A stretch of DNA of 63,011 nt, counting the filler, from Neolecta irregularis DAH-3 (taxonomy: Eukaryota), in assembly GCA_001929475.1 (NCBI GenBank). It is 15 parts of 15 records of this genome, joined end to end, with 100 filler letters (N's around TTAATTAATTAA, not from the genome) between each part and the next. Parts side by side here need not be neighbours in the genome. Positions count along the whole stretch, not along the records: positions 30,438 to 35,843 come from LXFE01003498.1; positions 35,944 to 37,155 come from LXFE01003500.1; 13 more parts are not named here. One strand, 5' to 3'. The first letter of the stretch is position 1. The number at the start of each line of letters is the position of its first letter. A model generated the notes under the pieces. That model did no database searches and had not been told where the DNA came from. It worked only from the letters and a program-made list of their open reading frames with translations. Below, one piece after another: positions 1 through 58,286 of this stretch. The position numbers and the translations under genes were made by a program.

Positions 1-186
1 ATTTGAATTCTCGCAACAGACATGATGGGCGGATGAAATTGAGAAGGTTGGTAGATTATATAAGCATGGGTGATAAGGCTGATGGATTTTGGATGATTCC
101 ACGGGTGGGTCATTATAAATGGTACTTTATCAAAAGGTGAGGATTTTGCAGGTAGGACGGTCACAGATTTGGTGGTGACGTTGGAC
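1..186. repeat. Near-identical direct repeat of 10620-10806
   Basis: Matches 10620-10806 apart from one substitution (CATGGG/CACGGG) and a 1-nt indel. Confidence 0.9.
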
Positions 187-530
187 GATTCCACAGGTGG
201 GACAGAACAATAGGTCCTCTGCCCCTCTTGATCAAGAAATCAACAACTTTAAGAACCCTATCCGCTACTACCCTCCCATCACCACTCATTCTATTGCCAT
301 CCTTGTCACGACTTTAACCCTTGGATTCTGCCCGACAGCTTTCGTCTAATTTAGAACAATATTAAAAGTTTGAAGTAGATACTGTAGGCTGCCATCAGAT
401 ACATTAAATCTGCGGATTATCTAGAGTTCTGAAATTAAAGTAGATTAATATTTTACAAGTCCTTTGATAGGCGTTATTGTTCTTGGTCCCCGGATAAAAC
501 CAACAGTCGCCTAGACATGAATCCCTGGAT

Positions 531-2656: not shown

Positions 2657-3166
2657 TTGCGATGTCAGCCAACAGCATTATCATGAGACATCTATCGCTA
2701 ATTTGTACACACAACATCTCGATAATTGTTCAGCTACTTGTAATTTATTTGCCACAACAAATTTGTTCGGCATTGAGCTGGTTTGCCGAGATATTAAAAA
2801 AACAATATTCTTGACTTTTTCGCCCAAACCAAGATCATGAATTCATGCTCATACTTGCTTTTCGAGATATATAGATTGCAATATCGATGTAGATTACACT
2901 TTTCACCTGACGAACCAGTTTCAACTATAAAATGCCTTGTAGTTATTGATACCTTTCCACTCAGTCTCCCTCTAAATAACTCCTCGCGAAGACTCGCATT
3001 CTTTAAGACCAATATATGGGCCTGAGCTTTTTCAGAAACGCTGCAGGAATGTGCTGTTTTCCAAGGGGTTTAACCTGTTGTAATAATTTCAGACGTATAG
3101 ATTCGTAGCATGTGTTTCCTGAGGGCACTCAAACAACCAGACTTATGAAATGATTTCGTATCGATC

Positions 3167-3333
3167 ACTAAGGATATACCCTGGATACCCATACGGCAAG
3201 GTGGCTTGAAAGTATATATAGGCGGAAGTTAGATATTCCTACCCAAGTACGAATACTTAGGTTGTAAGAAGTACGAATGCTTAGGCTAGTTATAACACTT
3301 GGTCTTGTTGTTCTTCTAAGCGCATAACTTACA
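3167..3333 (+). mobile_element. Degenerate solo-LTR-like element, related to 22385/23073/50759
   Basis: Shares TAAGnATATAnCCT..CATACGG.AGG..GGCTTG start, TATA-like motif, CTTAGG internal repeats, CTTAGGCTAG...TGGTCTT block and CTTACA end. Confidence 0.5.
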
Positions 3334-3617
3334 ATCCCGGTGAATAGCCAATATTCGCCTAGAGTCCTTATAGTGGCTGTCAAGAATTTCCGATTTGAAA
3401 TTATTATTCGGATGGAAGGGACAGCTCAGTAGGTCGATAACCTAATGTCTTATTTACTAGGCCTATGGACAATAATTTATACATCGACGCAACGTCGAGG
3501 GGAACAAACTTATTGACCTACAAATAAAAACGACAACTGCAAAGAAAGAAAAACCTGCTTCAGCCGTAAGACCCAAAACTCCAAAATACTGCAAGACATT
3601 TTTCGGATGAGCGAATT

Positions 3618-4811
3618 CTACTTGTTTGACGATCCCAATTTCCCGACGTCTGTCTCGAAAGTGTTGATGGAGGCTGTGACTGATTCGGAACAGCTGAGAA
3701 GACCATCGCGACTACTTTGACTTCCGGCAAAAGGTTTGTATAATCTCTTGACTTGAACTTGCTCTCGTTTCCTCTCTTCGCCAAGGATATTGCGATCGAA
3801 ATTTGCGGAACTTAGTGCGGAACGAATTGATCGAAGACTGAAATCGATGGGTTTTGTCGGCGGCCGAGTCTTTGTTTCGCCAATTTCCTCTTCAAATACC
3901 ACACGCCCGAGGATCCCGTTTCTTGAGGTATGGAGTTCGGAATCTTCAATTCGTTCGTACCATTCGAGAACGAGGATAGGAGTTGCGCACATCAGAACCC
4001 ATCTATTTGTTAGGATAAACAATGATGAAAGTCGATACCGAATGAAGTCGCCGAATGCGAAAAAGAAGACCATCCAAACGTCTAGACAATAGAACATGAT
4101 TGGAATAATGATGCTGGAGTACGCCAAGAGCGCAATTGGAATGTTTTCCCATTTGTATGCGTGCGAAGCGACGGTAATGCTGTAATAGAGCACATAACTC
4201 AAAAAACACAGGCTAAGGATAATCTGAAATAACTTGGAGAGGGCCGAGACGCTTCCTTCCCATGCGGGCTCATCTAAAAAACAATCGAGGGAGTAGAATA
4301 GTAACTGGAACAACACCAGAATTATACCAACCCATTTGATGACCGTTTTATTTCGTTGTCGACGAGTGAGACGAATTAATATTTGGATATAAGTAATCCA
4401 AAGAAGCGTCGTACTGAATATCCTGAAAATCGCCAAGAAGATGCTGTTTGTAATGAGCTCTCGAGCTCCCTTTCCTGTAACACTTTTCAACTCGTACTGC
4501 CGTTTGAATTCTTGAGTTGTTAAAATCATGGCAATGGTCATTGATATTGTGACCGTAAGAGTTGCGATTTTGAGTAGCCAAGGCCTCCGACGTCGATGAA
4601 AAAGAACGAGGGCGAGGAGGATATAGGAAGTAACGCAAGCACCAGAGACTGCAAATGCCAGAGGAGCATTTGATGCGAAAAAAGGTTCATGGATAGCGTT
4701 GTTTCCTTGACTGCTGATGTTGGAAGGAGGTGGAAGGGTTGAAACTTGTAATGCTGCGAGTTGACCATGGTCGGATATTCCCGAACCTTCTAGATAAGAT
4801 TTTGAGGACAT
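3618..4811 (-). CDS. RIM21: PalH/Rim21 7-TM ambient pH sensor
   Basis: PFFASNAPLAF, RRPWLLK, LEWYERIE...GILGR motifs and multiple TMs; a 36-nt in-frame intron near 4003-4038. Confidence 0.85.
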   Translation of the reverse strand: MSSKSYLEGSGISDHGQLAALQVSTLPPPSNISSQGNNAIHEPFFASNAPLAFAVSGACVTSYILLALVLFHRRRRPWLLKIATLTVTISMTIAMILTTQEFKRQYELKSVTGKGARELITNSIFLAIFRIFSTTLLWITYIQILIRLTRRQRNKTVIKWVGIILVLFQLLFYSLDCFLDEPAWEGSVSALSKLFQIILSLCFLSYVLYYSITVASHAYKWENIPIALLAYSSIIIPIMFYCLDVWMVFFFAFGDFIRYRLSSLFILTNRWVLMCATPILVLEWYERIEDSELHTSRNGILGRVVFEEEIGETKTRPPTKPIDFSLRSIRSALSSANFDRNILGEERKREQVQVKRLYKPFAGSQSSRDGLLSCSESVTASINTFETDVGKLGSSNK

Positions 4812-6181
4812 ACCCCTTTTGATCCTGCTAAAATGCTTGGCTCCGCGTGTAATTGTCGAGACGAAGCAGTTGGCAGTAACCTCAAGGTGCAGTTTGCTTC
4901 AGGAAAATCCGCGCTGCTGTGGCTTGGTGGAGACTTGTCGCTGGCTAACGATCCAAGGTATATGAAATTGTCCTATATTTGCTCAAAACCAGAATACTTC
5001 TAGCTGAGTAAACAGAAAGACATCCTGTTGTTTTCCAGGTCATGTGCGTGGGTAAAAGTATGTCTAAAAGCAGCAAATTAACTGATACATTATCCATTTG
5101 GTGGCTTCTAAACAGTACATATTCCCTTCGTGCTAATAAAGATTAGGATATTCCACCTTCCCTGCCGAAAAAGTGCTGTCAATTGACGGCTGAATTATTT
5201 GACCAATGAACAATAGTCATAGTAAGTCGCCCGATTTCTTCCCAGGCTTACCCCGGTCTTTGCAAAGACGTATTAGCTCGCTACAAAACGGGTTGAGCAG
5301 TGCAATCATTAGATTCGTTTTATATATAAATAATGTTCAAGTTGGCTTTCATGTCTCAAACGTGATACTGTGGTGAAACATAAATACAGCCGAACCTGCT
5401 TATGACGAATGTGGCTTGGCAACGTGTTCATCGTTACAAGGCAGATTCATTACGCGTGATAGCAAAATAGAAACACAGGACACAGGATCCAAATCAATCC
5501 AATCCGAATAAATCAGAGCAATAACTTGATTCAGCAATTTATATTTATATGTATATGATTCGTCTTTGAACGCGTCTCCTATGACTACGAGAGAACGTCC
5601 CATTGTTCAACATGATCGGAAATTATTCAATGAATTCGCTTCGGAATCTCTTATGAAGTGTAGCTGCGCCGGATCCTGTTGCCTGGATATTGAGGTTACA
5701 TTAACTACTTTCAACTGGATCTCACATTTACTATACCTATTGAAAGCATCTGTACTTTTTCAGACAGAGGATCAACGATAGGTCAATTGTATTACTCAAT
5801 AACCACTGGTTTAAAGCCTTATTTCCAGACGAGGATTGGAGGTGGTGGGCACTCTGCATTTTTTGCTCATTTAGCAGAGCGGCATTTTAATTTGTTTTTT
5901 TATAACGAGGTTTGAAAGTAAGGTTTAAATTCGGTAGGTCCCATACAAATCACTGTTAAAGCCAGTTGAATTCGGTATAAGGAATTCGGTATACAGGGAA
6001 TACCACGCTCGCGTGTTGAGTTTGCAGTGCCCAGATTTAGCACCCAGTTGAAGCATAAATTAGAACGCCCCTTTATCCAGCCGGAAACGATCTTTCGATT
6101 CTTCTATTAACTACGACTCTTCCTCATATATTGTCACTCCAAGATGACGGCAGCCTCGTTCCACTGTCGAAAACCAGCCCA

Positions 6182-6601
6182 ATGGCAAGTTCGTAGGACA
6201 ACCCCTTTTCCGAATTTTCTGATCTAGAGAAATGCAGGGACGATATAACGTCTACTCCAGTGGAACCATGACGATGTACGAGACTGTAATCAATGGTCGA
6301 AGATGGATTACCAAGGAGCAACTTGGCGGGTGTATCCAAAAGATGCATGTTCCTGAAGACCTGTATAAACAAGGTCGTCATTTAGGATTAACTGGAAATC
6401 GCCTGTGGCATTTCTACTGGTGTGGAGAAATTCTTCCTGCTCGAAAACGAAGTATGTGTTGATTGAGTGATCACACTGACAGATGTAGAAAGGGCAGTAG
6501 ATCTAGACAGGGGTATCGTAGAGGATAATGTCCAAGCTGGATACCTTGCTCCTGCACAATTGCCCAGGAGAATATCGAGCGTCCCGGAGATGCTGAACTA
6601 A
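6182..6601 (+). CDS. Putative spliced orphan gene (5' end uncertain)
   Basis: ORF MQGRYNVY...ARKR joins via intron GTATGT...CTGACAG to NVERAVDLDRG...EMLN*; no recognisable family. Confidence 0.35.
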
Positions 6602-7058
6602 ATGTGTGGAGAATATTGAAATTATTGTTAGGATAACTTGGTTAATACAAATTCGAACAGCAAAGTCCCAGTCTCGGAAAGTTTCTCGGAAAGATGAGCA
6701 ATAGTCCGGTCATGGCTCTTTCTGAAGCATCAAAATGAATCTATGGAAGATGAGCCTACAAATTTCCTAAACTTTTATTCTCAGATTTACAATACTGTAA
6801 TGTGAGGCGCGTTGTAGATTTGACGACGTATGTGAATGATATATCGAATTTCCACAAGTTTGAGTGTTGAGGGTTAGAATGAGATTGGAAGGGTATTATC
6901 AGTCACGTACTATTCACAAAGTCATAAATGAAATCGAATGTACAAATATCAGCCGGATCGGGTCTGCTGGTGATTTAGATGGTAGGGAAATTACTGAATC
7001 GTCTTTAATCTCCTTTTTACCTTTTCGCTGAAACTAAGGACTATTACTATCTCTATGA

Positions 7059-7214
7059 AATTGTGTCTCGGGCGGTTGAGAAGGATAGATCCTACAAACT
7101 CGGGATGAATTGTGTCTCGGGCGGCAGTTGAAGGATGGATTATACGTCTGGATGAATTGTGTCTCGGGCGGTTGAGAAGGATGGATTCTACGTCTGGATG
7201 AATTGTGTCTCGGC
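7059..7214. repeat. ~47-bp tandem repeat, about 3.3 copies
   Basis: Recurrent AATTGTGTCTCGGGCGG(C/T)..GAAGGAT(G/A)GAT...GGATG units. Confidence 0.85.
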
Positions 7215-7656
7215 ATGAAAAGGATGTGTTGGGTCTTTAGTATCTTATTCTTTTCAAATGGTCTAGGTATATTTGGGACGTGACTCAAACATGATGCGAG
7301 GAATACATATACTGCATGTTATTTGTAAGACGAGTGTGATTAGCGGCAAGGATGTATCCCGGAAGCAGCAGCTTGTTTTATCGTGGAAGCAGTGTCCGGA
7401 CTCCGTACACTGGTTATTGTCGCATTTCTGATGGAAATAAGGCATCAGAACATGACGTACGAGACGGGGGCTAGACCGCGGCCGANNNNNNNNNNAATAG
7501 CAGACCCGACAGCAGACAGACAGACAGCGACAGAGGACCCGGCAGCAGACAGACAGCGACGGAGAGACACGGACGGCGCCTGAACCTCGTTCACATTCAC
7601 GGTCACGCCCGCCGCCGGCCAATCTTATCGCGCGCGCCGTGCCTGCCCGCCCCGCC

Positions 7657-9109
7657 ATGCCCGCCCGCCCCGCCAACGACCCGGACCCAGACCCGGACCT
7701 CGACCTCGACCTCGACCTCTCGTCGTCGCCCAGCATCCACAGCGAGGACGACATCGACTTCGACTATGTCTACGCCCTGCACACCTTCGTCGCCACCGTC
7801 GAGGGCCAGGCCACCGCCGCAAAGGGCGACACCCTCATCCTCCTCGACGACTCAAACTCCTACTGGTGGCTCGTCAAGCTGCTCAAGGACCAGTCCATCG
7901 GTCGCCCCTCTCCGCTCGCCGTGCTGACCTCTTCCCGCAGGCTACCTCCCCGCCGAGCACATCGAGACCCCCAGCGAGCGCCTCGCCCGCCTCAACAAGC
8001 ACCGCAACATCGACCTCGCCTCCTCCATGCTCGAAGACCACCTCGTGCCCCGCCCCTCCACCCGCTCCAGCCAGAAGAAGCTCCTCTTCCGCTCAAAACC
8101 CCTCAAGGCCGTCACCATCGCCGACCACGTCTCCGTCTTCCAGGTCGAACCCCTCGAATACTTGTCCGATTCAGAAAGCGACCTTGCCCCAGACCCCCAG
8201 GACCCCGCTATCCACATCGAGCCTGCAGACCCCAATGTCCTCGACTCCCCAGTCTCCAGAGCCCGCGCAGAGGGCAAAACAATGTCCGCCCTCTTCAACG
8301 ACCCAGAATCAGAAATAAAAGTCACCCTGACCCCAACAATCGCCCAGGAACTATCCTCCATCCCGCCCGCTCACCACACCCGCACGTCCTTTGACTCAAA
8401 CTCCGCATTCCCAGACGACCTGCCCTCCGAGACAAAAAAGAAGAAATCCAGCGTCTTTGGAAGTCTCTTCAAAAAGAAGAAGAAGACGAAAAAGTACGAC
8501 CATGACCCAGATTTTCTTGCAGACACAGAATTGTATGGAGACCGCCAAAGTAGCGTAGACACCTTGGGCGAACCTGCAATCGAGGAAATCCCAGAGGTTT
8601 TCTCCAACCGTTCCATGCGCTCATACTTTTAGAAGCCTCTCTTGAGGATTGATACCTCTTTGAATCAGGATATGAATGATGGAGCATCGCCTGAGAATGA
8701 TGGATCGGTGAATGACGAACCACTCCAAGACGAACTCCAAGACACACTCCAAGACAATCTCCAAGACGAACCCCTAGATCAAGAATCATCTAAACCTCAA
8801 ACTCTACTCGAAACAGACCTCCCCTTCGATTCATCCTACACAACAGAATCTCAAACAACTCCCTCATCGTCTACATCCCTTAAATCTCCAATAGAATGGA
8901 ATGATCCAGCTTTAAGAGCATTCATCAACGATCCCTTTTCAATACTCGAACTCGTTTTTCTAACTAGATATAATACTGCTCCTTCCTCACCTACTACTAC
9001 AAAAATCACCCCGGAAATTGCCGATATTTATTACCCCTCCCGAATTCGTTTGGACAATATTTCGAAACAGCTTGATTCTATCTTGGACCGAGTCTTGGAT
9101 TCACGGTAG
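7657..9109 (+). CDS. SH3-domain polarity protein, Tea4/Bud14 family (compact)
   Basis: SSSPSI..DIDFDYVYALHTFVATVEGQA...LDDSNSYWWLVK...G|YLPAEHIETPSERLARLNKHRN family signature; introns at 7901-7940 and ~8597-8632. Confidence 0.85.
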
Positions 9110-9431
9110 CATTCCCCTCTGGCCCTTCTTTTGTCCCGTCGTTGCGCTTTTGTCCCGTCGTTGCGTTTATTTATATTATATCAATCTTGTCACCCATATA
9201 TCATATGGGATACTAATTATATTAAAATGAAAAAAAGGTACTGGTAACGCGTGTTTACCCCCTGTTTTTCAAATAATCCATGCAATTACTCTTTTAAGAC
9301 TTATCTCGCGATATCTGAATTTCAATCTGGGATTTCTAATGACGATGACATGTATTCTATATTATATAGCTCCTCAAATGACCATTAAACTGATAACATC
9401 TCCACGTGTTCTGCGGATGTCTAGTTCGAAA

Positions 9432-10360
9432 TCATCGTGCGCTAGAAGGTGGAGGTGGATGTTTTCTAAGTTGTCCCACCATCAGATTCGGTCTTGATGG
9501 TCGTAATCTTCTGCGGATAGACACCACATAATACAAGAGCGCAAACGCGGCACCTAAATATAAGCTGGTGCAGACAAGACAAATACCCCCGAGATGACCC
9601 CAATGAGCAGTTTTACTTGAACCACCATATCCTGCCCCGTAAAAGAGATCATATCCAATAAATCCAATTGCACAAAACCAAGCTGGCACGGGAATTATCT
9701 AGATCCGTCAATTTCGCGACATACAGCGACACGTCAAACCCCCCCAACAGAAAAAGTTATTTTTGGCTTTAAAATAGCGACCATCGTGGTAATTCCCACA
9801 AGACTCCCACTCATTCCCAAAGCAGGAGGAACGGGTCTTTCATTGATCATCATTTGATAATACTGAGAGACGATATGTCCCATACCCCCCAGAGCTCCCG
9901 CACCGCAATATAGCACAATAAAACTACGACTTCCCAATAACGATATTGCAAGGCGTCCAAAGGACAAGTAAGTAAACAGATTAAAGAAAGCATGGTCGAA
10001 ATTCACATGCGATATTGTACTCGTGAGTAGATTCCAGATTCTTTTTTCACTTATCGTGGTATCCGCCGACACCATAAAATTCCTTGAAAGAAACATTTGC
10101 ATAGATTGGTCCTGGTTCTTAATAGCGTCCCGCCATAAGTAAAGAACGACTAGACTTCCTCCAATAGTTGCCGCCCAGAACATATGTCCCAAAGAATAAT
10201 CGGGTTTGTTGTCGCTAGTTGTAAGCGGCCTTTGTTGAGGACGATGAAAGATGGGCTTCATGGGTAACGAGAGTGAAAATCTGTTTCTGTTTTTGAGAGG
10301 AGAGTGCAACCGACTAGACTTGAGGCATCCGGAAAGGCCAAATGAATGGCGGAGTAGCAT
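9432..10360 (-). CDS. Rhomboid intramembrane serine protease, probably mitochondrial (PARL/Pcp1-like)
   Basis: Basic presequence, SH..FDHAFFN, catalytic GMSG and AHWGHLGG; two short introns. Confidence 0.85.
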
Positions 10361-10619
10361 TGCAGTGGATGGTGTTGAATGAAAATTTCTGACCATGATC
10401 GATCCCATTAGAAGTACCAAAAGGGTAAGGTGAGACAGTTTTGCATTCACGGTGGGGTAATGAATGGAAATATCAAATTATTTTTTCTTATTAACCTCAT
10501 TTTTGGTCTTATTTATAATATATCCACGTGTGACTTTCAAATACATGAGTATGCATCAGAAGTAGAAACATCCCTTCTATCTTCAGTTGTACCTTATTTG
10601 TTGTAGCGTTGTGGAATAC

Positions 10620-10806
10620 ATTTGAATTCTCGCAACAGACATGATGGGCGGATGAAATTGAGAAGGTTGGTAGATTATATAAGCACGGGTGATAAGGCTG
10701 ATGGATTTTGGATGATTCCACGGGTGGGTCATTATAAATGGGTACTTTATCAAAAGGTGAGGATTTTGCAGGTAGGACGGTCACAGATTTGGTGGTGACG
10801 TTGGAC
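10620..10806. repeat. Second copy of the 1-186 repeat, at a contig end
   Basis: Direct sequence match. Confidence 0.9.
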
Positions 10807-10907
10807 NNNNNNNNNNNNNNNNNNNNNNNNNNNNNNNNNNNNNNNNNNNNTTAATTAATTAANNNNNNNNNNNNNNNNNNNNNNNNNNNNNNNNNNNNNN
10901 NNNNNNA
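10807..10907. other. Artificial contig spacer N44-TTAATTAATTAA-N44; recurs at ~20810, 26061, 27334, 30338, 35844, 37156, 41161, 51060, 55693, 57009, 58287, 60050, 61417
   Basis: Identical six-frame-stop linker within Ns each time. Confidence 0.98.
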
Positions 10908-12321
10908 CCCCCGGCGCCGCCCGCCAGCCCCGAGCTGCCCTCCACCGACAGCATCATCCCCTTCATCGCGCCGCTCGCCTCAAACCTCTCGCACGAAATA
11001 CGCACTCCCCTGCAGGGCGTCATCGGCCTGCTCGACGTCCTCTACGCAACCCTCTACGCCGGCAACCCCCCGCCAGACCGCGACCCCCACGACGCAGACG
11101 TCGTCCAGCTCATCGAAACAATCCAGTCCAGCGGGAAACACCTGATGGACCTCATCGATAACATGAACGAGTACTGCGGCCCCCTCGAACTCGTGGCCAA
11201 AATAGAGCGATCCAGCCTCAGTAGCCCCCTCGCTAGCTCCCCCGCGTCCTCAAACCAACGCAAACGCAGAAGAAGCGAAGACAGCATCTCCCCTCCCCCC
11301 AAAATATTCCTAAAAGACAAAGAAGAAGAAGAAAAGGTCAATCTGTGTAGATTTGTCAAAGATGTCGTGCTGGACGCATGTAAAAGCCACGATGCAGTGT
11401 CCAGGTTTGGCCCGCATCGCGGTATTCGCGACGAACAGGGATCCCTCCAACTTCAATTGACCAGCTCTGACGATAAACGATTGCTTCTACAGGCCATCGT
11501 GGAAGATGGTGTTCCTGAATACATTTGGGTTGATCCTGATAAATTACAACAAGCGCTTATTCACGTCATTGTCAACGCGATAAAATTTACGGAAAGCGGA
11601 TCGGTAATGATTAATACGCGGCTTTCTTCGCCTGGTGAAATTACTTTCTCAGTCATCGATACAGGAATCGGCGTGCCGTCTGAATTAAAACCGCGTCTTT
11701 TTACCCCGTTCTCGCAGGCCGACTCAAGTACTACGCGCTGGAGAGACGGCGCCGGTCTTGGGTTGACGCTTGCTCGCCGTTCTATACGTTCGTTGCGCGG
11801 AGATGTTTGGCTGAATTCTTCTTCTTCTGGTGGTTCTGACTTTCGTATACGTTTTCCTATTGCACCTTATTCGCCCACCTCCTCCCTCTTCACTACATAC
11901 CCCATCAATGTCATGATTGTCGAAGATAACCCTATAAACAGACAAATGGCATACAGCATGTTGAAAAAATTAGGTTGGCTGGCTACTCATGTCACGTTAT
12001 GTGAACACGGCCAAGAAGCTGTCGATAAATTCTCGGGTCAGGAATTGGTCCTAATGGATTGTTGGATGCCTGTTCTTGACGGATTCGGCGCTACCAAACG
12101 GATACTTGAAATTTCTCAAGAACGCGGGTTTTGCACTGAAGTCGTGGCCATCACTGCCGATGCAATGAGCGAAAACCTTGAAAAAACCCTGCGCATCGGT
12201 ATGGCTGGATATGTATACCTAACTCTTGTCCTCAGTTTCGCTTATCCTTTAGGTTGTCAAACCTTTTCAGATAAAAGATTTGGAGCAGGTCGTTGTTCGA
12301 TTATTTGGAAGAAATCAATAA
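10908..12321 (+). CDS. Hybrid sensor histidine kinase (HisKA-HATPase-receiver), 5'-truncated
   Basis: H-box SHEIRTPLQGVIG, N-box NAIKFT, G1 DTGIG, G2 GAGLGL, receiver EDNPINR / MDCWMPVLDG / TADA / KP after the last intron. Confidence 0.92.
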
Positions 12322-26160: not shown

Positions 26161-27316
26161 GGATGCTCTGCTGGATGATCTGCCGGATGACGACGCCGCT
26201 CTGCCAGACGCTGCCCACCTCTCGCTGGGCCTCGCGTTCTCGTTTCCCCTCAGGCACACCGCCGACGGCGCAACCATGCTGCCCATGGGCAAGGGCTTCG
26301 ACCTGCCCGACGCCCTGGGCGCCGACCCCGCCGCCCTGCTGCGCACCGCCTTTGCCGCCCGCGGCCTGCACATCGCCCACCTCGCCATCGTCAACGACTC
26401 CGTCGCCGCCCTGCTCGCACACCGCCACTGCCATCCGCACACCGCCCTCGCAATCGTCGTCGGCACCGGCACAAACGCCACCGTCCTGCTGCACCGCCGC
26501 CCGGTCAACTCCGAGTGGGGCATGTTCGGCAAGCGCTCCCTCCCCTTCTCCGCAGTAGACCGCCTCATCGACTCGCGCAGTGACAAGCCCGGGTACCAGC
26601 CCTTTGAGCAGATGACCGCGGGGCGCTATCTGGGCGAAATAGCCAGAGAGTCGCTGCTGTCCGCGCACGCCCTCCACCAGTTTTCATTCGCTTCCTGTCC
26701 GAGGAACTGGAACATCCCCTGGTCGCTGTCGACCGAATCAGCAGCCCAGATAGAGCAGTCAGACGACATCCTGCCCTAGGCTAATGCATAGGTCGGAGGA
26801 TTCCGCTAGAAACCTTTTAGCGCGGTCGTTCCCGTTAGACCATAACCAGACATACACAGCCCATGACATACGCCGTATACGTGAAATATGCACAGACACA
26901 AGCACCCGTGCCGCATCGTTAATAGCTGCTGCAACTATAGCCCTCTTGAAAGCCACAAATAACCTCCCTCTGGCAAATGAAACAGTAGTAGTGCCGTATA
27001 CAGGGAGTGTCATACAGTGCTACCCACAGTTTAGCGAACGCTGTCAACGGTTTATTGATTTGATCTTGAGGGAGGACGGCGTCCGCGAGNNNNNNNNNNT
27101 AATAACCTCCCTCTGGCAAATGAAACAGTAGTAGTGCCGTATACAGGGAGTGTCATACAGTGCTATCCACAGTTTAGCGAACGCTGTCAACGGTTTATTG
27201 ATTTGATCTTGAGGGAGGACGGCGTCCGCGAGGACGTGAGGTTGGAGTTTGTCCAGAGCAGTGGGATTGTAGGGGCTGCTGTATTGGCCGCCGCCACAGC
27301 GGGTGTAGCAGCATAG
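26161..27316 (+). CDS. Atypical hexokinase-family kinase (GlcNAc kinase/HxkC-like), 5'-truncated; 26958-27089 duplicated across an N10 gap
   Basis: FSFP, MGKGF, VNDSVA, VGTGTNA, NSEWGMFG, PFEQMTAGRYLGE, SGIVGAAV. Confidence 0.85.
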
Positions 27317-30437: not shown

Positions 30438-31758
30438 GGAGAAAACGTCACTTCCATTACATTCGTCGTGTACGCGCAGGGCAAGTTTAACATTGGGATC
30501 AGATACTCGTTCAACAGGTCCAAAAATGTAGGCTGTTAAACCGCCAATGGGAGGAAGAAAAATCTTTAGGTCGTTTCTGGTTATGAGTTCAGGATAAGAA
30601 CCCCCAGTGTCTTCAAATAGAGCACGTCGAAGTGTTCCCTCATCGATTCCAAACCGCTTGGCTACTCCGGGCAGAAACCAAACTTGTTGTGAATTCTACG
30701 AATGGTAAAGGAAATGCACACCTGGTTCAACAGCGACTTTTGTGACGGCGATTTCGCCTGTTTTGTTGAGAACAACATGACCATCTATTCGAAGTCGGCC
30801 AGTTTTGACAGCATCTTCAATCTCATGGAGTTTCATATGAGCTTTAGTGATAGCGATTGTTGGTCGAATATCGATTCCCTTGTTGATATAGTCACTGTAC
30901 AATCGAGTAGTCATGTGCCCGAATGGATCCATTGCGACAATTTTCTCTGGATCACCCCATTGAGGAAATGGGCCAACTTGCACGGGAGGCTCAGAAAAAG
31001 CAAAGTTTGGACGGTGATTGACGGGAAGATCACCCATGGCGACAGCAAGCGAGTGATAAATCGAATATGATCCTCCATGAGCTCCGATAGCTTTGCATCA
31101 GCGTGACTTGTGTTTGAATACACATACCATTGCGTTTTCGAAGGGTGCTGGGTTGACGGGAGACGACGACTAAGCGGTTAGAAGAGAGATAAATGCTCAC
31201 ATACTTGGTCCTCGAATGAGAGGATCAAGATGGCCCCAACTCAATGGAAATGGGTCTATCTGTCAGATTGAAATTAAGAAGCAACATACCAATATTCGAT
31301 TGTCCCGGATAAGTCGTCAAAATAACTCTGCTTCCCCAGGGGCTGGAAGAATAAAGCTTTCTTGGTACCGCACTAAGGGGACCAGGTGAGGACGAAGGGC
31401 TAATCGGAACGACTTGTAGCTTCTTTGGGGTATCGACAGGCTGATCGGCAACGATAGTATCGAGATTGACATCAATAGTTCCGGGAGCTGTTGGAGCAGG
31501 CGATAAACTTTGCAAAGAGCTGGAAGAGAATGTGCGCTGGTGCATTGGAGAGTTTTGAGAATCGACTTGGAGTTTCAGATTTTCAACAGCCGAGACGATT
31601 GACGAAAGAGTAGAGTTGAGCTATATGTGAGACCACGCTGATTTCCTATAGGACTTGGGTACCTTTTCCGAAAGCTCTTTCTGACCCCGTTGCAACTCTG
31701 TAATTGCCTGAAGAAGCAGCGCATTGCTTTCAGTCAGCGTTACAGGACTATCAGTCAT
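30438..31758 (-). CDS. urg1: Urg1-like GTP cyclohydrolase II family protein (3'-truncated)
   Basis: RVILTTYPGQ, KIVAMDPFGH, DIRPTIAITKAHM, VWFLPGVAKRFG, FLPPIGGLT, RVHDECNGSDVF. Confidence 0.88.
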
Positions 31759-32107
31759 AGCGGCCTGATTGTTTGTGATCTTGAAGGAATCAACAGGCAC
31801 ATTAAGGGAGGGTGGCATGTACCAAAGAGAGCACAAGAGGGTCGCGGGGCAGGTTTATACCGCCGTGTCAGATGATTAGCGCCTTGTTAATAGAAGAAAG
31901 CCCCAGATGTGATAGTGTTAAAATATGGACTGAGGGGAGAGGAGACCTATTATTGCACGGATATGTGGGATAAGCATTCTGTATACAGACTATCGACTCT
32001 ACACTTGGTCTTTATGATGTCGGCAAAATTGATGTTTTTTTCAGGAATATCCATAAAATATAATACCTGTTTGCCTTGAGCCATGATGATTGAGAGTCAC
32101 GATGACC

Positions 32108-32204
32108 AGTCAATGTTAATTACGATCAATCAATGTTAATTACGATCAATCAATGTTAATTACGATCAGTCAATGTTAATTACGATCAGACAATGTTGAA
32201 TTAC
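32108..32204 (+). repeat. 20-bp tandem repeat (CAATGTTAATTACGATCAAT), ~4.7 copies, overlapping the WAPL start codon
   Basis: ATGs at 32113, 32133, 32153, 32173, 32193. Confidence 0.92.
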
Positions 32205-34594
32205 ACCAAAAAACGCCCAATCATAACTTATGGCAAGCGAAACAGAGCGATTGCGAAAGAAGATTTCTTAGACGACATTGATTCGGACGTGCCTCAACCG
32301 CCAGTTCTCAATTATTTATCACAAACCACAAAGGTCAATAGCGGTGCAGATAAAGACCTGTTTGAATTCAATGAAGAAGACGAACAATTTTCTATACCCA
32401 AAAAAAGGAGGAAAAAGGAGAGCGTGAAGACTCCACCAAAGAACATCAAGCAGGATTCAGCGGAAAGTGCGAAAAGTCCCGCAAAAGTCAAAGACAAGGA
32501 GGCTGCTAATGCGAGAAGTCAGAGAGCTCAGAGACGACTATGTCGATCGAAACCCTCAAGGCGAATCGAAACTAATACCGGATTAGAGGATGAGGATACA
32601 CCAAAACCGTCACGAGAACATGGAAGTATTCATAATCGCCAGAAGAAACCCCGCAAGTCTCCTGCAAAGAGTATATCTTTGCTATGGGTATCTGATAATA
32701 AATAGCTTTCCGCAAAGGAACACCCGTCTCTCATATCTCACAAACGCCAGAAATTGAACCTCAATCAAGTATAATCCCTGAATCGTCTCCGTCGCACATA
32801 CCCGTTCGAAATAAAACTCCACCGATGCCGGACTTTTCGACTCCCGCCAAGCCTTCCTCGCGGCCTCATTCTCCGCAGACTCCTTCGAATTCTCAGGATT
32901 CTGTCTGGGACTTGATACCAGAAACGCAGATTACCCCTCTTCGGAACTCGTTGATGAAGAGTTTAAAAGCTCCTTCGCCGTCGCCGTCGCCTCAACGAGG
33001 ACCTGTTCTTGCGGTTCTTCCATCATTGCCAGCTGTTGCGTCAGAGACTTTTCAGCGCACATTGCCTTTGAAAGAAGCAAGAGTAACTTATGCTCGTGTA
33101 CGGTCATTTCTAGAAACCCCTCTAGACGACCCACCAATCGTCGCCGTCGCCCGTGAGAACCCAATTGAAGAAGATACCCAGGTTCATGCTAGTATCCATG
33201 ACCTGCGAGCTGCGGGGGGCACAAAGCGCTTCCTTGATGAACTTTGCGATCTTCTCGACGGGGCTGATGCCTCGATTCCCATTCAAAGATCAAGGTAAAT
33301 AATCTCGTGACAACGCTGAACCGCAATAGTTTGCTTGAACTTTGTAGAAAACTCTGCGAACGGGAATATTTTGCTAATTTCCGGGCATATTCCGCCAACC
33401 TGCGCATTTTTTCAAATTTGCCGTTGAAAACCGATTCTGTAATTTTCTTTGTTTCCCTTTTAATATTGATAGATTGTTTGTTTTGGGCTGACGTTTATTG
33501 CGTGTTTGGTTCTTCAACAGGGGACATTTTCCGAGAAATTAATCTGCGAGTATGGGATTTTTCAATTTTTGTTGCGGATGGTTGATCGAGATTTGGATAT
33601 TGCGAGGGAAGGTGAAAGAGTTGGGTTGAGCAAGGTTTCCCAATCGACAGTCATGCAACTGCGATCTTGTGTCCAAAAAGTGATATTTCAAGACCGGGAT
33701 GTTTCTGTGGTGAGTAAATGAAGGAAGATTATTGATTGTAGTTGTCTGTGCGGAAATTGGCTTTTGTAGGGGTGAGTTTGGTGGTAGTTGGACATGCCGA
33801 GGATGACCAAGTTATTCTTTTTCGCAAAGAGGGGATTCAAAAGTGTATTTTGTGTGTCTGTTTAGAGGTTTGTCGCGTTGCGCTCGTTGTTAATTATAGG
33901 ATCCATTTGAAGCCGAACTTGCGCTTAGAGTATGCGAGTTGGCATCAAGTGGACATGCTGTTGAGATTTCCGAGTCCGCGGCAATCCATCTGTCGAAATT
34001 ATTAGGCGATCTACTTTCTTCACCGAGCCAAGAAGACTTGATACTTTTGTTACTTCGGTTTCTAATCACCGTCACTGGAATTAACCCAATTGCATGTGAA
34101 CAAATAGCCTTGTCGGGTTCTCTCAAACTCCTCACTATGGAAATACTTTGTCTACGCGATCGAGCGGATGCCGATGATACTGTCCGTGAAAGACTACTTT
34201 TAATCCTGGGGTTGATGATCAATTTTGCCGAGGAAAGTGATGTCGTTCGAGAAGCGATGTGTCAAAGTACGTTGTCTGATTCTGCGACTGTTGGCAGAGT
34301 CTTGCTAGACACATTTATATGCGCAAGTATCGTATGACTTTAGATATTTATTAATAGGCACCGAAAGAAGTTGATGGATATCTAGGATTACTACTTGCTC
34401 ATCTGATATCCCATTCAACATCGTTCCGAGCCATCGTCATCCAAAAGCTCGACGGTCTTGGTTCTCTTATCCGAGTTTTACAAGACTTTTCGTCAAATAT
34501 GGAGGCGAATGTTGGATCTTCAATGAGGGGTGTCATTTGTCGAGCTGTAGATTTGTTGAAGCCTCCTACCGAACCTCCTCCTAACCCAAAGTAG
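32193..34594 (+). CDS. WAPL: Cohesin release factor Wapl/Wpl1
   Basis: N-terminal TYG, TYARVRSFL, SIHDLRAAG..RFLDE, helical domain with LLILGLMINFAEES; multi-exon. Confidence 0.8.
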
Positions 34595-34711
34595 ATTTGT
34601 TGATTAAATTAATATTTTGATATCGATCAGTAGATTTAGATCAGTAGATTCATTATCGATCTGTAGATTATGATATTCGATTTTAATCACGAGATTTAAG
34701 CTGCACCTGCC

Positions 34712-35438
34712 ATGTCACCCAAAAACCCACCTAAACAACGCAAGATTGCAGTTCTGGGATCTCGGTCCGTGGGTAGGCAATATTTGCGGCCTCTTTGAAG
34801 GGTGTAGGAAAATCTTCGCTGACGGTGCAATTTGTGGAGAATCACTTTGTGGAAAGTTACTACCCGACGATTGAGAATACGTTTAGCAAGATCATCAAAT
34901 ACAAGTCGCAGGAGTTTGTGACGGAGATTATTGATACTGCTGGCCAGGTACTGGGCCTTGGGGTGTGCTCACAGCAGGATGAATATAGCATCCTGAACTC
35001 GAAGCATGCTATTGGGATCCACGGATACGTGCTTGTCTATTCTGTGACGTCGAAATCGAGTTTTGAGATGGTCAAGATTATCCGGGACAAGATCCTGGAC
35101 CACTCTGTATGGCTGTAGGCTGTGGAGCTTACGCAAGGGGTTGGGCTGGGTTCCGATTGTGATTGTGGGCAACAAGAGCGATCTGCACATGCAGCGGTTG
35201 GGCATTGCAAGACGGGGCTGAGATGTAGGCAAATCCAGCCGGAGGAGGGCCAGGCGCTGGCTGAAGAGTGGAAATGCTCGTGGACGGAGGCTACGGCGCG
35301 GCACAACGAGAACGTCAGCAAGTGCGCTGTGTGTATTGCTGCTTACGAGCAGCCAAGGCGTTTGAGCTGTGCATTGCGGAGATTGAGAAGCCGTCTGCCA
35401 AGGCGCTGCCGGAGAGCAAGGGCTGTGCGATATTTTAA
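34712..35438 (+). CDS. RHB1: Rheb small GTPase
   Basis: GSRSVGKSSLT, YYPTIENTF effector loop, DTAGQDEYS, GNKSDL, C-terminal CAIF CaaX; five introns of ~30-36 nt. Confidence 0.96.
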
Positions 35439-35475
35439 TATATGCAGTACCTAGATCTACGCTATAAATTAATGC

Positions 35476-35693
35476 TCACGTTGTCTTTGCCCGAGCGGCC
35501 GCCCTGATCTCCCGGTCGACGTCTGCGAGCTGGCGCGCGGCGTTGACGGCCTGGACGAGGTTGATGAGCTGCTTGCCGGCGCAGACGGGGAAGGTGGCAG
35601 CGGCGATGAGGTACGGGTAGGACAGCGGGATGCCGCAGAGGTATCCTGGCGTGAGCAGGGCTGGGGGGGGGCGGGAAGGGCACCGAGGCGCGG
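35476..35693 (-). CDS. PIS1: Phosphatidylinositol synthase, C-terminal fragment
   Basis: FPVCAGKQLINLVQAVNAARQLADVD matches the PIS C-terminal consensus. Confidence 0.72.
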
Positions 35694-35703
35694 NNNNNNN
35701 NNN

Positions 35704-35843
35704 CCACGATGACCAGTCAATGTTAATTACGATCAATCAACGTTAATTACGATCAATCAACGTTAATTACGATCAGCCAATGTTGAATTACACCAAAAAA
35801 CGCCCAATCATAACTTATGGCAAGCGAAACAGAGCGATTGCGA
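35704..35843. repeat. Variant copy of the WAPL start region (32098-32256)
   Basis: Same flanks, one fewer 20-bp unit, ATG->ACG in two units. Confidence 0.9.
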
Positions 35844-36027
35844 NNNNNNNNNNNNNNNNNNNNNNNNNNNNNNNNNNNNNNNNNNNNTTAATTAATTAAN
35901 NNNNNNNNNNNNNNNNNNNNNNNNNNNNNNNNNNNNNNNNNNNCGCAGGCCGAGAAGGCGCGGCTGCGGGACCGGCAGCGGGGCCAGCAGCGGGCAGCCA
36001 TGGTGTGCTGTTCTCGTTGACCTTCTT

Positions 36028-36150
36028 CTTCGAGTATACCCGGCCCTCCTTCCTCGTACTATACCCGGCCCTTCGAGTTATACGCCCTCCTTCGAGTATA
36101 CCCGGCCCTTCGAGTTATACGCCCTTCCTCGTGCTATACTCGTCTATACC
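36028..36150. repeat. Imperfect tandem repeat CTTCGAGT(T)ATAC(C)CGGCC
   Basis: About 6 degenerate units upstream of ORF 36160. Confidence 0.75.
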
Positions 36151-36159
36151 CCCGCCACA

Positions 36160-37041
36160 ATGCCCCGCTCTCCCGCCCTCCGCCTGCGCCCCGCGCCCGT
36201 CCCGCGATCCGTCCCGCGCATCCCCCGCCGCCTCCTTTTTGGCCGCGTGCGCACCGTCACCCCCGTTCCCGATGTGCGCCCCGGCTTCGACGCCTATCTC
36301 GTCACCGACACCGCCCGCCCCTCGCGCCTGCGCCCCCTCCTCGCCCGCGCCGCCGCCGCCCTCTTTGGCACGCCCCTGCCGCGCCACCCAGACCTCTGGT
36401 GCGCGGACCCCGCCCTCCTCGCCGCCGTCGCCCGCCCGCAGTTCCACGCCGCCGCCAAGCTCACCATCCAGGACTACTTTGCCACCGGCAAGTCCCTCAC
36501 CAACGAACTCAAGCTCCACGCAGACCCCGCCCGCCTTCCAAAGCTCGGAGAAATAGCCTCCCTCGACTTCCTTGCCCTCCACGGCCAGGCCGGCGACTTG
36601 GAGTTCTGGGAATGTCTCCTCAAAGCAGACAAATCCCTCTTGCTCTCCCTCCTCGCCCAAAAATTCGCATTCGTCTTTCACGAAATGCAAAATTCTCTCT
36701 TCACCTGCCGCGTCGAGCTCTTGCCTGAATCCACCGCCCCGCCAGAATACACACAGAAACTAGTCACCATGCGTCGTCACTGTATCACTCGCACCCTCCT
36801 CACTTACCGCGTCACCGATGCAAACAACAACTCCGCCATCGTAAAGTTGGCTACTCCCTGGATTAATATGTACTGCGGAGAATTCAATCTAATGGATCCA
36901 GACGATCCGGATTATTGTAATTGGTTGGTTGCTGATGTAGATGGTATAGTAGATGATAAACTCTGGGATTTCGTAAAGAGCAATATGGTGATGACTGGTG
37001 AATTAGAGAATAAAAGGTGGTATGCTATGGGTGAGAGGTGA
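36160..37041 (+). CDS. Intronless hypothetical protein, likely mitochondrial
   Basis: 293-aa ORF with an Arg-rich, acid-free N-terminus and strong codon periodicity. Confidence 0.7.
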   Translation: MPRSPALRLRPAPVPRSVPRIPRRLLFGRVRTVTPVPDVRPGFDAYLVTDTARPSRLRPLLARAAAALFGTPLPRHPDLWCADPALLAAVARPQFHAAAKLTIQDYFATGKSLTNELKLHADPARLPKLGEIASLDFLALHGQAGDLEFWECLLKADKSLLLSLLAQKFAFVFHEMQNSLFTCRVELLPESTAPPEYTQKLVTMRRHCITRTLLTYRVTDANNNSAIVKLATPWINMYCGEFNLMDPDDPDYCNWLVADVDGIVDDKLWDFVKSNMVMTGELENKRWYAMGER

Positions 37042-37155
37042 ATATGATGAATATGAATATGATGAATATGATGAATATGAATATGATGAATATGAATATT
37101 AATATGATGAATATGAATATGAATATGAATATGATGAATATGAATATGAATATGA
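37040..37155. repeat. (GAATAT/GAT)n microsatellite at a contig end
   Basis: Directly visible. Confidence 0.95.
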
Positions 37156-54754: not shown

Positions 54755-54901
54755 CGCAGGTAAATATTAAAAAGAAAGGAAAAGGAGCGGCGGAGAAGGA
54801 TATTACAAAGGTAGGCAAACGAGTGTAGACATTTCCCGAATATCCAAAAGAAAGAAACAGATCTGTAAGTAGTAAACACCCAAACCAACCCCAAGAGAAT
54901 G

Positions 54902-55692
54902 TCAAAAGTCAACGGACGGGCCATACCCTGCACTGTTGCGCGATGGTGACCATGCTGGTGGAGCCTGTTGTGTTGCTGTGCGCCTGTAGGCGGGCCCCTG
55001 GCGCGGGGGGACGTATTCGGTTTCTGTGGGCGACGACAGCGTTTCTGGTAGGTTGTCGTTGTATGATGACGACGAACGAGAATAGCGCGAGAGGACGGAA
55101 TCTTCCCGCGAGAGGGCAGCGCCGCTGAAACTTGTAGTGATGCCGAGGCCATTGTCGACCTGATGGGTAGGACCAGTGGGAGTCTGGGGGTTGCTCTCGA
55201 TTGAGGGAGCAGTAGTAGTGTGTTTGTATACAGGCGCAGTAGATTGGTTGTAGGGAGCGGTAGATTGGTTGTAGGGAGCGGTAGATTGGTTGTAGAGAGC
55301 CGTAGGGCTTCTGTATGTAGGACCAGTGGGAGTCTGCTGGTTGCTCTGAGAACCAAGAGTCTGCTGGGTGCTCGAGGGAGATCCAGGAGGCGATCCCAGA
55401 GTCTGCTGGCTGCCCAGAGATCCCAGAGTCTGCTGGGTGCTCAGAGATCCAACAACCTGCTGGCTGCTCACTGTAGGCGATCCAGGAGGCGATCCCAGAG
55501 TGTGCTGGTTGCTCTCTGTAGGCGACTCCGAGTGGCTCTCAGCCGGATCGTAGTTCATCAGCGGCGTCGACCCGGTGCCATTGCTGCGGGACGCAAACCC
55601 CTGGCCGACTGAATGGCGAGTCGTGCGGTTCGCCGCATGGTGCCAGCCGCGGTAGCCGCCGGGGTCCGCGCCGTCGGCCGCCGCCGGGAATC
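54902..55692 (-). CDS. Low-complexity S/T/P/Q repeat protein, C-terminal part
   Basis: Frame open to the contig end (..GGYRGW..MNYDP..); internal repeats QQTLGSPPGSP and YNQSTAP. Confidence 0.65.
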
Positions 55693-55951: not shown

Positions 55952-57008
55952 GAGTGTTGGCAATGGGCCATGGGCTTAGCCCGGCCCATTAAAAGCCCGC
56001 GGGCTTAGCCGATGGGCCGATGGGCCAAAACGGGCTTTTTCACGTGATATCAAATAATACCATGCAGCCCTTCTCCTCCCACATCTCCGTCCTAACCGCC
56101 TTCCTACCGGCCTCGCCTGCCCGCCTCGCCAGTCCATCTTGCCCGCCTCTTCCATCTCACCCTCCTCACGCTCTTCTCGCCCGCCTCTCCCGTCTATCTC
56201 TCCCCGTCTCGAGCAGCAGTGCACGGCCAGGGCGAGTAGCGCATCGGCAACTGCAAAGGCGACGCTGCGCCAGGCTGCCACCGAAGAGTACAGCCGCGGG
56301 TTCGCGGGCAGCGGGCGGCGAGCAGCCAGCGTCCACAGCAGCAGCACGCCCAGCTCCGCGCCCGCAATCGCTGCCGCCGCACACAACGCCGCCGCGTGCA
56401 GCAGGTGCGGCCATGAAAACCCTGGCAGCGCGCTAGTGTCCTATTACCTTGCCAGTGATAGGTTTACAGTCGGCATGTGACTGGAGTCGCATGTACACCT
56501 ATGGACTTATATATCCACGTATTCAAAATGAGATTTGTCACACTTTGAAGCACGAGCCATAGCATCCATGTAGCATCCACAAGTACTACAAAAAGGATCT
56601 TTCCTTGGGCAGTTCTCACTCGCCCGAAACCAGATCGGGAAACACCCTCGTATAGAAACGTTAGCCGAGGCGACGAAATCAGGACGGGTAGCAACATTCT
56701 CCTCTCTCTGCTGATACAAGGCTAACTGGGTCAATAAGTGATAGAGATGAGTATGAAAATCCTGGACCCATTGCACCCAGATCATCCTTTGGCTGAGGTT
56801 CCAATAACCTACTTGATACAGCAACAAACCACCTATCCAACTCCCAGTCGCCTAGCTCTTGATATCTTGACAATACCAGCATCAAGTGCTAATNNNNNNN
56901 NNNACCACCTATCCAACTCCCAGTCGCCTAGCTCTTGATATCTTGACAATACCAGCATCAAGTGCTAATTGTGAAAGAGCATTTAGTGAAGCAGGTGATA
57001 TGCTTGAG
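55952..57008 (+). mobile_element. Decayed hAT transposon: terminal motif and C-terminal dimerisation domain
   Basis: End GAGTGTTGGCAATGGGCC with GGGCC/GGGCT subterminal repeats; TYPTPSRLALDILTIPASSANCERAFSEAG at ~56830-57008. Confidence 0.85.
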
Positions 57009-57169
57009 NNNNNNNNNNNNNNNNNNNNNNNNNNNNNNNNNNNNNNNNNNNNTTAATTAATTAANNNNNNNNNNNNNNNNNNNNNNNNNNNNNNNNNNNN
57101 NNNNNNNNGGGGACGCGGGAGGAACAGGGGACGCGGGAGGGGGGGTTGATCCAAAAGGGAAGTGCCAAA

Positions 57170-57361: not shown

Positions 57362-58286
57362 TCACTGCAAGACGGAGACGACCACAGTGATGTCGTCGCG
57401 CTTGCCGCCCTGGTAGGGCAGCCCGTGCTCGAGGGCCTTGCCCTGCGGTCAGACGGTCGATGGCAAACGCACCATAAAGGGGCTTTCGGCCCAGGGGTCT
57501 GCGGCGACGGCCGTTGCCTGGGCGCAGAGGGTGTCTGCGATGGCCTGCTGCCTGGAGACGCCTGGCGGGGCGGCGCACGCATTGACGAGGGCGAGGATGT
57601 CGCAGTCCCAGAGGTTGTCGTGCAGGCCGTCGGTGGCCAGGATGACGATGTCGCCGGCGCGCACGGGCAGGGCGGCGACGGCGGCCTGCGCGGCGGGCGT
57701 GTCGGGCGAGTTTGTGCCGAGCTGCCTGCGCGTCAGCGGGGCGGGAAGCGGGGGCGGGCGGTGCTTGGGGCAGTCGAACCAGTGCTCGTCGGGGCGGCTC
57801 TGCCACAGCAGCCGCGAGTCGCGGATCACCGAGCAGCGCGAGTCGCCGATGGTCAGGCACTGTAGCGATGTGTGGCGCAGCGGCAGTGGCGCACGCAGCG
57901 GTACGTGGCGCAGCGGTGCGTGGCGCAGCCGCACTAGCGCGAGCGTGGCGCTGCCCACAAACGGGCGCGCGGCCGTCTGCGTGTGCGCGTACGCGGCCGC
58001 GACGCTTTGGACGAAGCCGCGCATGTGGCGGGTGCGCGCCCAGCAGTGCAGCAGGAGCTGCGGCAGTCAGCCAGCCCGGCCGCCGCGCAGACGCACCCGC
58101 GCCCACAGCGCAGGGCGGCCGAGCGGGCGGGTGTTCCACGCGCCCACGCCGTCCGCCACGCCCAGGGCATCGCGCGCAACCAGCAGCGCGTCGTCGCCGC
58201 AGGACACGCCCGCGAGCAGGTAGCCGGGGGGGAGTGGTGATCCGCTTAATCCGGCGGAAGATCCGCTTAATCCGGCGGAAGATCCG
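57362..58286 (-). CDS. PP2C-family phosphatase (Ptc7/Azr1-like), 5'-truncated
   Basis: CGDDA, GVADGVGAW, GSAT, IGDSR, HWFDCP, LATDGLHDNL, GGKRDDITVV; 30- and 39-nt introns; 21-bp repeat encoding GSSAGLS. Confidence 0.9.

Follow-up and report, generated by a model that had tools for sequence, protein, structure and literature searches.

Mirror-skewed GC-rich islands in the genome of Neolecta irregularis as candidate footprints of long-lived meiotic break hotspots

Introduction

Several kinds of chromosomal site are accompanied by local shifts in base composition. At human meiotic hotspots, resection covers 1-2 kilobases (kb) and a symmetric centre is bordered by strand-asymmetric flanks of +/-2 kb, in which peaks of C>G and A>G changes have been attributed to Rev1 and Pol eta; insertions are frequent at these hotspots (PMC7615360). 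In Cryptococcus, peaks of guanine-plus-cytosine (GC) content (MAT) mark recombination hotspots (PMC3390403), and the "GC skew" of the gerbil paper denotes a weak-to-strong bias, not a bias of G versus C (PMC7403616). Among replication-related systems, the main text of the work on Schizosaccharomyces japonicus origins makes no mention of skew (PMC3446301), and a replication cause for the jump in skew at Candida centromeres has been rejected on grounds of size and range (PMC3459929). Here we analyze a 63,011-nucleotide stretch of Neolecta irregularis DAH-3 (assembly GCA_001929475.1; hereafter the window), starting from the interval 34700-37041, where an earlier sequence-only reading had noticed GC-rich islands that are G-rich to the left and C-rich to the right, whichever way the genes run.

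Peaks of GC are usually ascribed to GC-biased conversion, which is strand symmetric, and what has been seen of strand-specific repair mutagenesis is no more than a faint signal in pooled data. In the islands described here, a strand-specific force comes near to saturating silent sites at single loci and shifts the amino-acid use of housekeeping genes. A search of the openly readable literature found no account of such islands, and the main text of the genus genome paper contains none of six relevant words.

Polarity and gene direction

The genome-level numbers below come from 148 segments totaling 604 kb (4.3% of the genome), a sample enriched for runs made only of G and C. It comprises loci with such runs, selected blind to G versus C, loci found by a neutral word, contigs taken by number, the whole of a 131-kb contig (C2555) and the window. 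Genes were predicted with a symmetrised choice between G and C at fourfold sites, and the 182 predicted exons were scanned against Pfam, with matches in 81 (34 of 86 and 47 of 96), to which the strict orientation test was limited. Flanks were tested at distances of 0.3-2 kb from centres or GC-rich ends if they held at least 10 G+C sites.

In these Pfam-confirmed exons, genes directed toward an island centre have more G than C on the sense strand in 21 of 21 flanks, and genes directed away have more C than G in 30 of 31; for all predicted exons the counts are 22 of 26 and 34 of 35, respectively. Sense skew (positive for C over G) at 0.3-1 kb is +0.49 in away-genes and -0.49 in toward-genes, against a background of +0.12, and introns carry the same sign as fourfold sites, more weakly. 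The same polarity is found where the assembly is intact. Forty-five GC-rich regions were recognized, 17 of them fully enclosed, with G to the left and C to the right in 14 of the 17. Together with three nearly enclosed regions these make 20 unbroken islands, whose centres were set by GC alone; 17 run from G to C on the plus strand, compared to 30 of 56 control points (p=4e-7).

The skew does not travel with the gene. Among eight long exons, picked after their profiles had been seen, five span a centre and change from G-rich on the 5' side to C-rich on the 3' side, and three lying on one arm stay C-rich. The 36 background genes have no 5'-3' gradient (0.10, 0.10, 0.11, 0.11, 0.06), and near islands G is in excess at the 5' ends of toward-genes (-0.27) and C at the 3' ends of away-genes (+0.44). 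Independence of gene orientation had been claimed from the window, where the Rheb-like gene described below is the only clear test and most cases have a C-rich sense strand; it is on other contigs of the genome that the claim is demonstrated. Fourfold and intron skew against distance, split by gene orientation over the 604 kb, takes its sign from position and not from the coding strand. We conclude that the pattern is genuine and follows position rather than gene direction.

Anatomy of the islands

The islands are patches of 2-3 kb, mirror-skewed about a fixed point, in which fourfold GC reaches about 0.9 compared to 0.38 in the background. An elevation of G and C together is confined to the innermost 0.4 kb or so; between about 0.8 and 2.5 kb from the centre the elevation is limited to outward-strand C, equivalent to inward-strand G, and is seen at twofold sites as well. 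At fourfold sites, outward-strand C declines from 0.56 (0.5-0.75 kb) to 0.37 (1-1.3 kb) and 0.23 (2-2.5 kb), with G at 0.13-0.18 over the whole span of 0.5-2.5 kb. Twofold sites, at which a silent change must be a transition, have an outward P(C) of 0.81 and P(G) of 0.79 in the core (background, 0.35 and 0.36) and of 0.60 and 0.38 at 0.8-1.2 kb, a difference of 0.22 (bootstrap, 0.15-0.28), and this pattern recurs at 34 broken ends. Corrected for orientation, the excess skew extends to 3 kb (0.40 at 0.5-1 kb, then 0.30, 0.24, 0.24 at 2-2.5 kb and 0.11 at 2.5-3 kb), is 0.02 at 3-4 kb and stays near 0 to 20 kb in most bins, with few flanks reaching past 7 kb. The orientation tests, the unbroken islands, the range and the twofold sites all bear out the earlier proposal of recurrent point sources of strand-asymmetric, GC-raising substitution.

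Along the 131-kb contig, the signal takes the form of local blips, some skewed with little gain in GC, separated by flat stretches of 28-38 kb, with no saw-tooth or terminus signal. Two weak sites at 86-96 kb of this contig have a skew near 0.4 and little GC gain; they may be islands that are weak or still young, with skew appearing ahead of GC.

Short tandem duplications occupy 17% of the bases within 150 bases of the switch from G to C, compared to 0.24% in the background, and occur at 12 of 20 centres, compared to 6 of 248 control windows and 1 of 200 shuffles. The switches are intergenic in 14 of 20 islands and lie within predicted genes in 6 of 20; 11 of the 14 intergenic ones are at most 450 bases upstream of a predicted start. 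Alanine makes up 6.9% of residues far from islands and 10.7-11.7% near them. A CpG-island or methylation origin was considered and rejected, with CpG observed/expected ratios of 1.01 and 0.90 giving no contrast. From 5811 runs of twelve G/C, 8-12 such runs per island and a 2.3% share of GC-rich bases among neutral loci, we roughly estimate that the genome holds some 300-700 islands.

The expectation that island centres would share a cis-element was not borne out, since no motif survived the controls at the 20 assembled centres. The best post hoc word, TCCACCA, was discarded, because it is in 9 of 20 centres but turns up as well in 35 of the 248 background windows, in 5 of 20 flanks and in 7 of 34 independent ends. 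Among the S. pombe hotspot motifs that we scored (CRE, CCAAT, oligo-C and others), CRE is in 3 of 20 centres with 3.2 expected, and oligo-C is in 9 of 20 with 4.3 expected but in 7 of 34 independent ends with 9.1 expected. Neither polyG (1 of 20) nor polyA (0 of 20) is in excess at the centres.

Two further observations concern G/C-only sequence. A near-identical G/C word of 17-18 bases recurs on at least eight contigs in surroundings of average GC (C114:15065, C928:17847, C2646:17017, C3310:12111 and others) and is probably part of a dispersed repeat. Some tiny contigs contain long poly-G or poly-C runs (L024 C360, C414, L131 C619) and are either island centres or sequencing artefacts.

Islands of the window and the interval 34700-37041

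The assembly (G000) consists of 4542 contigs and 14,182,604 bases, and the window is a chain of separate scaffolds (1-10806 is C4081 and 30438-35843 is C4107), joined by linkers of the form N44-12 nucleotides-N44; runs of N10 are gaps within scaffolds. Its genes have introns of 30-45 bases and belong to Pfam families ordinary for fungi. The features are collected in Table 1.

Table 1. Features of the window bearing on the islands (TRF, Tandem Repeats Finder; ORF, open reading frame; aa, amino acids; nt, nucleotides)
Position	Strand	Feature	Basis or remark
6800..9109	.	two-sided island around true in-scaffold gap 7486-7495	composition, Pfam, TRF
10907..11300	+	outward arm within histidine kinase gene	Pfam, composition
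26161..26779	+	outward arm within hexokinase gene	Pfam, composition
34712..35438	+	Rheb-like small GTPase gene, 187 aa, 5 introns of 30-35 nt	Pfam Ras, spliced frame
35476..35693	-	PIS1-like gene (phosphatidylinositol-synthase): 3' exon, last intron, end of preceding exon	
35704..35843	.	140-base piece behind N10 gap, near copy of 32124-32256 (20-base tandem repeat)	blastn, TRF
35844..35943	.	artificial linker between two unrelated scaffolds	C4107 (5406 bases) ends at 35843
35944..36850	+	outward arm of another island, C-rich on +	tandem duplications 35961-36125
36160..37041	+	293-aa ORF directed away from its centre	frame counts
54900..55692	.	G-rich (+) arm entering break; 21-, 27- and 96-base repeats	composition, TRF
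57400..58286	-	very GC-rich (0.73) arm in minus-strand gene, 21-base duplication at break	

The interval 34700-37041, which had been read as one island, is two half-islands from separate scaffolds that the pipeline placed side by side: the junction 35843|35944 is an artificial linker, and the G-rich and C-rich sides are not neighbours. The claim of a constant polarity survives this problem, because flipping a scaffold leaves the polarity unchanged.

On the G-rich side, the Rheb-like gene, which is named for its likeness and after the earlier label, is directed toward the island centre, with sense fourfold counts of G47:C13, intron counts of G52:C27 and GC at third codon positions (GC3) climbing through 0.56, 0.65 and 0.79. 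Its last intron (35318-35352) is of the GC-AG type; reading from a GT yields stops. The convergent PIS1-like gene is directed away from the centre, and its exon has sense fourfold counts of C21:G8; a homolog search with the 3' exon gave no match. Its true continuation is a 508-base contig (C1567, L160), found through a Pfam CDP-OH_P_transf match and sharing an exact 17-base overlap at 35677-35693. The PIS1 part of this contig has a GC3 of 0.97 and counts of C39:G29. Because G and C near parity at the far (5') end, the island centre on this side would lie about 0.5 kb or more past the break. The piece at 35704-35843, which matches its near copy at 95.5% over 133 bases (blastn), was rejected as the continuation of PIS1 in favour of the contig overlap and is a misplaced repeat copy. 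Among 80 metagenome PIS1 loci with 55-69% identity, none has Rheb, and the 23 long ones, profiled by eye, have no clear PIS1 island.

On the C-rich side, the 293-residue ORF has fourfold counts by thirds of C64:G13, C40:G1 and C13:G2, with GC3 of 0.91, 0.72 and 0.49. A homolog search returned only the ORF itself and Pfam gave no match; it possibly encodes an MBA1/Tim44-like mitochondrial protein, a lead suggested by an Atlas score of 0.88. Just past its stop, the scaffold end at 37039-37155 is a TGAATA-type microsatellite with purely G over C.

To the left of the gap in the two-sided island is G-skewed noncoding DNA with a 46-base repeat; to the right is a C-rich SH3-domain gene (7657-9109, plus strand), whose GT-AG introns 7899-7940 and 8594-8631 are confirmed by spliced contigs. 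The minus-strand gene at 57400-58286 found no match in Pfam and is probably PP2C-like. Short tandem duplications lie at 7059-7213, 36021-36125, 55239-55512 and 58239-58286.

Base counts uphold the G-rich approach to breaks (35000-35693, GC 0.59, G257:C153; 54900-55692, GC 0.61, G291:C190; 57400-58286, GC 0.73, G365:C286) and the C-rich departure (7600-8500, GC 0.63, G179:C386; 10908-11300, G80:C173; 26161-26750, G155:C245; 35944-36850, G193:C395). All seven stretches are longer than 300 bases, and p ranges from 2e-3 to 2e-18, below 1e-5 in six and 0.002 in the seventh. Other parts of the sequence-only reading needed trimming. The short stretch 7440-7485 is not significantly G-rich alone (G17:C12, p=0.46), but 6800-7485 is (G190:C107, GC 0.43). 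The departing sides, described as C/A-rich, are enriched mainly in C, and their A-T skew at fourfold sites and in introns is small and inconsistent. A rise in GC is confined to a minority of breaks: the window has 44 piece ends, of which only 9 reach a GC of 0.55 over 400 bases, 8 of the 9 with the stated polarity (the exception is at 57109), and among scaffold ends picked blind to GC, 6 of 52 reach 0.58.

A small patch at 56001-56440, C-rich on the plus strand with a GC of 0.66, lies in a 1.2-kb scaffold; its minus frame resembles a membrane-protein fragment, and it has no second copy in the window. The stretches 154-330, 3200-3340 and 10554-10760 are high-depth pieces of dispersed repeats, with many loose ends in both sequencing runs.

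Origin of the islands

We think it probable, though by no means assured, that the islands are evolutionary footprints of long-lived, fixed meiotic double-strand-break hotspots. The sequence-only reading had left the choice between replication origins and recombination hotspots open; the short range and large size of the signal suit break repair better than origins. Resection of the 5' ends after a break exposes the strand that runs inward, and it is the outward strand that is then synthesized anew. On the hotspot hypothesis, Spo11 would cut near the centre, often at a promoter, and resection of 1-3 kb would leave the inward-running strand single-stranded. Damage to this strand and error-prone fill-in would then place C in the new outward strand (A>G and C>G changes in the single-stranded one), perhaps through Pol eta and Rev1, as proposed at human hotspots. 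The symmetric core may come from GC-biased conversion or from overlap of the two arms, the duplications from slippage or end joining at break ends, and the extreme GC may reduce short-read depth and so break the assembly at many centres. Range, shape, sign and duplications together appear to fit the repair mutagenesis of human hotspots.

A model with symmetric GC bias only fails, with deviances of 455, 287, 150 and 56 compared to 72, 27, 33 and 6 for the best fits. A variant is that a single strand-specific fill-in process, placing C in the new outward strand, accounts for the skew as well as for most of the gain in GC, the core being arm overlap only; we regard it as possible but doubtful. 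If it is true, the islands are GC peaks made by directional repair mutagenesis and not by GC-biased conversion, and one genome sequence suffices to read off where the organism's hotspots, some hundreds in number, have their centres and how far resection reaches at them.

Several points weigh against break hotspots as the source. The hypothesis is built on composition, from which breaks and substitution directions are deduced rather than observed, and the apparent strand match to the human signature was drawn from the text of that paper and not from a figure. In equilibrium fits, several combinations of mutation classes do about equally well, and A>G with C>G is not singled out; the best fits at 0.4-1.2 kb often include inward T>G, with an optimiser that did not always converge. 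We therefore set aside mutation classes derived from these fits, which are not identifiable from composition. Three of the 20 unbroken GC patches have no polarity. Noncoding-class DNA, which includes missed exons, is less skewed than fourfold sites and introns: around the first 17 centres defined by GC its skew is about 0, and 0.3-2.5 kb from ends it is +0.13 to +0.18. The outward-C polarity is also the direction of the yeast leading strand. The genome has Spo11 (a TP6A_N match on C1346, with a C-terminal frame), six MutS_V loci and three IMS (Y-family polymerase) loci, but these genes are ordinary and do not discriminate. Spliced contigs differ almost nowhere from the assembly, and the DNA run may be the assembly's source, so neither offered polymorphism for polarising substitutions.

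The strongest rival is that the islands mark replication origins that are fixed and GC-rich, with a C-misincorporating regime over the initial 1-3 kb of each leading strand. C and A are enriched on the leading, outward strand of Saccharomyces cerevisiae, Kluyveromyces lactis and Candida albicans (PMC3459929), GC-rich origins are described in S. japonicus (PMC3446301), and the rough count of islands would be origin-like; in an eLife paper the sign is reversed at distances of up to 200 bases from Mcm sites (PMC10945306). The yeast jump, however, is 9% with a decay over about 20 kb (PMC3459929), compared to about 0.8-1.0 and gone by 3 kb in the islands. The missing saw-tooth in the 131-kb contig, the lack of polyG or polyA excess and the centres that lie within predicted genes likewise argue against origins, and the A-T skew is small and inconsistent. 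Moreover, we know of no origin process that lifts fourfold GC to 0.9. Origins are thus unlikely, but they are the alternative that we take most seriously.

Less plausible still is a link to transcription, either as an extreme form of the 5'-C/3'-G pattern described in many fungi (PMC3315797) or as mutation from strong bidirectional or antisense transcription that spreads out from promoters. The position of most intergenic centres just upstream of a gene would agree with it. The gene-anchored form is ruled out, because background genes are flat and island genes show the reverse, with G-rich 5' ends, C-rich 3' ends and the five exons that flip; only hidden antisense transcription from the centre would rescue this explanation.

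Selection on local DNA or chromatin, such as nucleosome exclusion or G-quadruplex or R-loop strands around a functional site, would accommodate centres that are often promoters and G-rich strands that converge on them. We consider it very improbable, given a shift that peaks at silent sites, fades gradually over kilobases, alters amino-acid use and comes with no motif.

An artefact, whether GC-rich DNA from a contaminant or a chimera or a selection of breaks through strand-specific dropout in sequencing, is scarcely credible: GC-rich parts do sit at assembly breaks, and a DNA-run contig in a GC-rich stretch has a depth of 143 compared to 356-426 in its neighbours (the run may be the assembly's source), but the polarity is the same in unbroken islands inside long contigs, single exons of ordinary fungal genes, whose introns are equally tiny, show smooth gradients, and a spliced contig covers the GC-rich and AT-rich parts of one gene. 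Low depth or dropout accounts for the positions of breaks, not for the islands.

If the islands are break hotspots, the hotspots are very long-lived, resection length is given by sequence alone, and the origin of GC peaks can be tested; if they are origins, they are a new and very strong origin footprint. The islands account for part of the fragmentation of the assembly, and genes such as PIS1 are split there.

Comparison with known systems

We regard the islands as a probable extreme variant of known hotspot-type footprints. Compared to the skews at fungal gene ends, they similarly affect G versus C, fourfold sites included, and A versus T little (McLean and Tirosh 2011, PMC3315797); that pattern is tied to gene ends, is absent from the background genes of this genome and can be reversed in island genes.

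With the centromeres of C. albicans they share a jump of similar size (74% there) that returns to baseline at about 3 kb, raised GC and an unsettled cause (PMC2924309, PMC3459929). Those centromeres occur once per chromosome and are G-rich outward, the skew going from negative to positive, whereas the islands number in the hundreds, lie in and between ordinary genes and are C-rich outward; with 45 GC-rich regions in the 604 kb of an enriched sample, in coding DNA, they do not look like centromeres, of which a single gene-free one per chromosome is expected. Yeast origins have the same mirror symmetry about a point and a C-rich outward strand, but a skew about 10 times smaller that reaches about 20 kb instead of 3 kb (PMC3459929).

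The local extreme of silent-site GC and its spill into amino acids recall the peaks made by GC-biased gene conversion in Cryptococcus (PMC3390403) and gerbils (PMC7403616). Such conversion is strand symmetric and the islands are not, as the failure of the symmetric-only model indicates. The human hotspots (Hinch et al. 2023, PMC7615360) likewise have a symmetric centre, asymmetric flanks of about 2 kb and insertions and side-by-side duplications at breaks. In contrast to the human signal, which emerges from pooled rare variants at short-lived PRDM9 hotspots, the islands are fixed in the reference, stand out at single loci with a fourfold C:G ratio of about 3:1 and are known from sequence.

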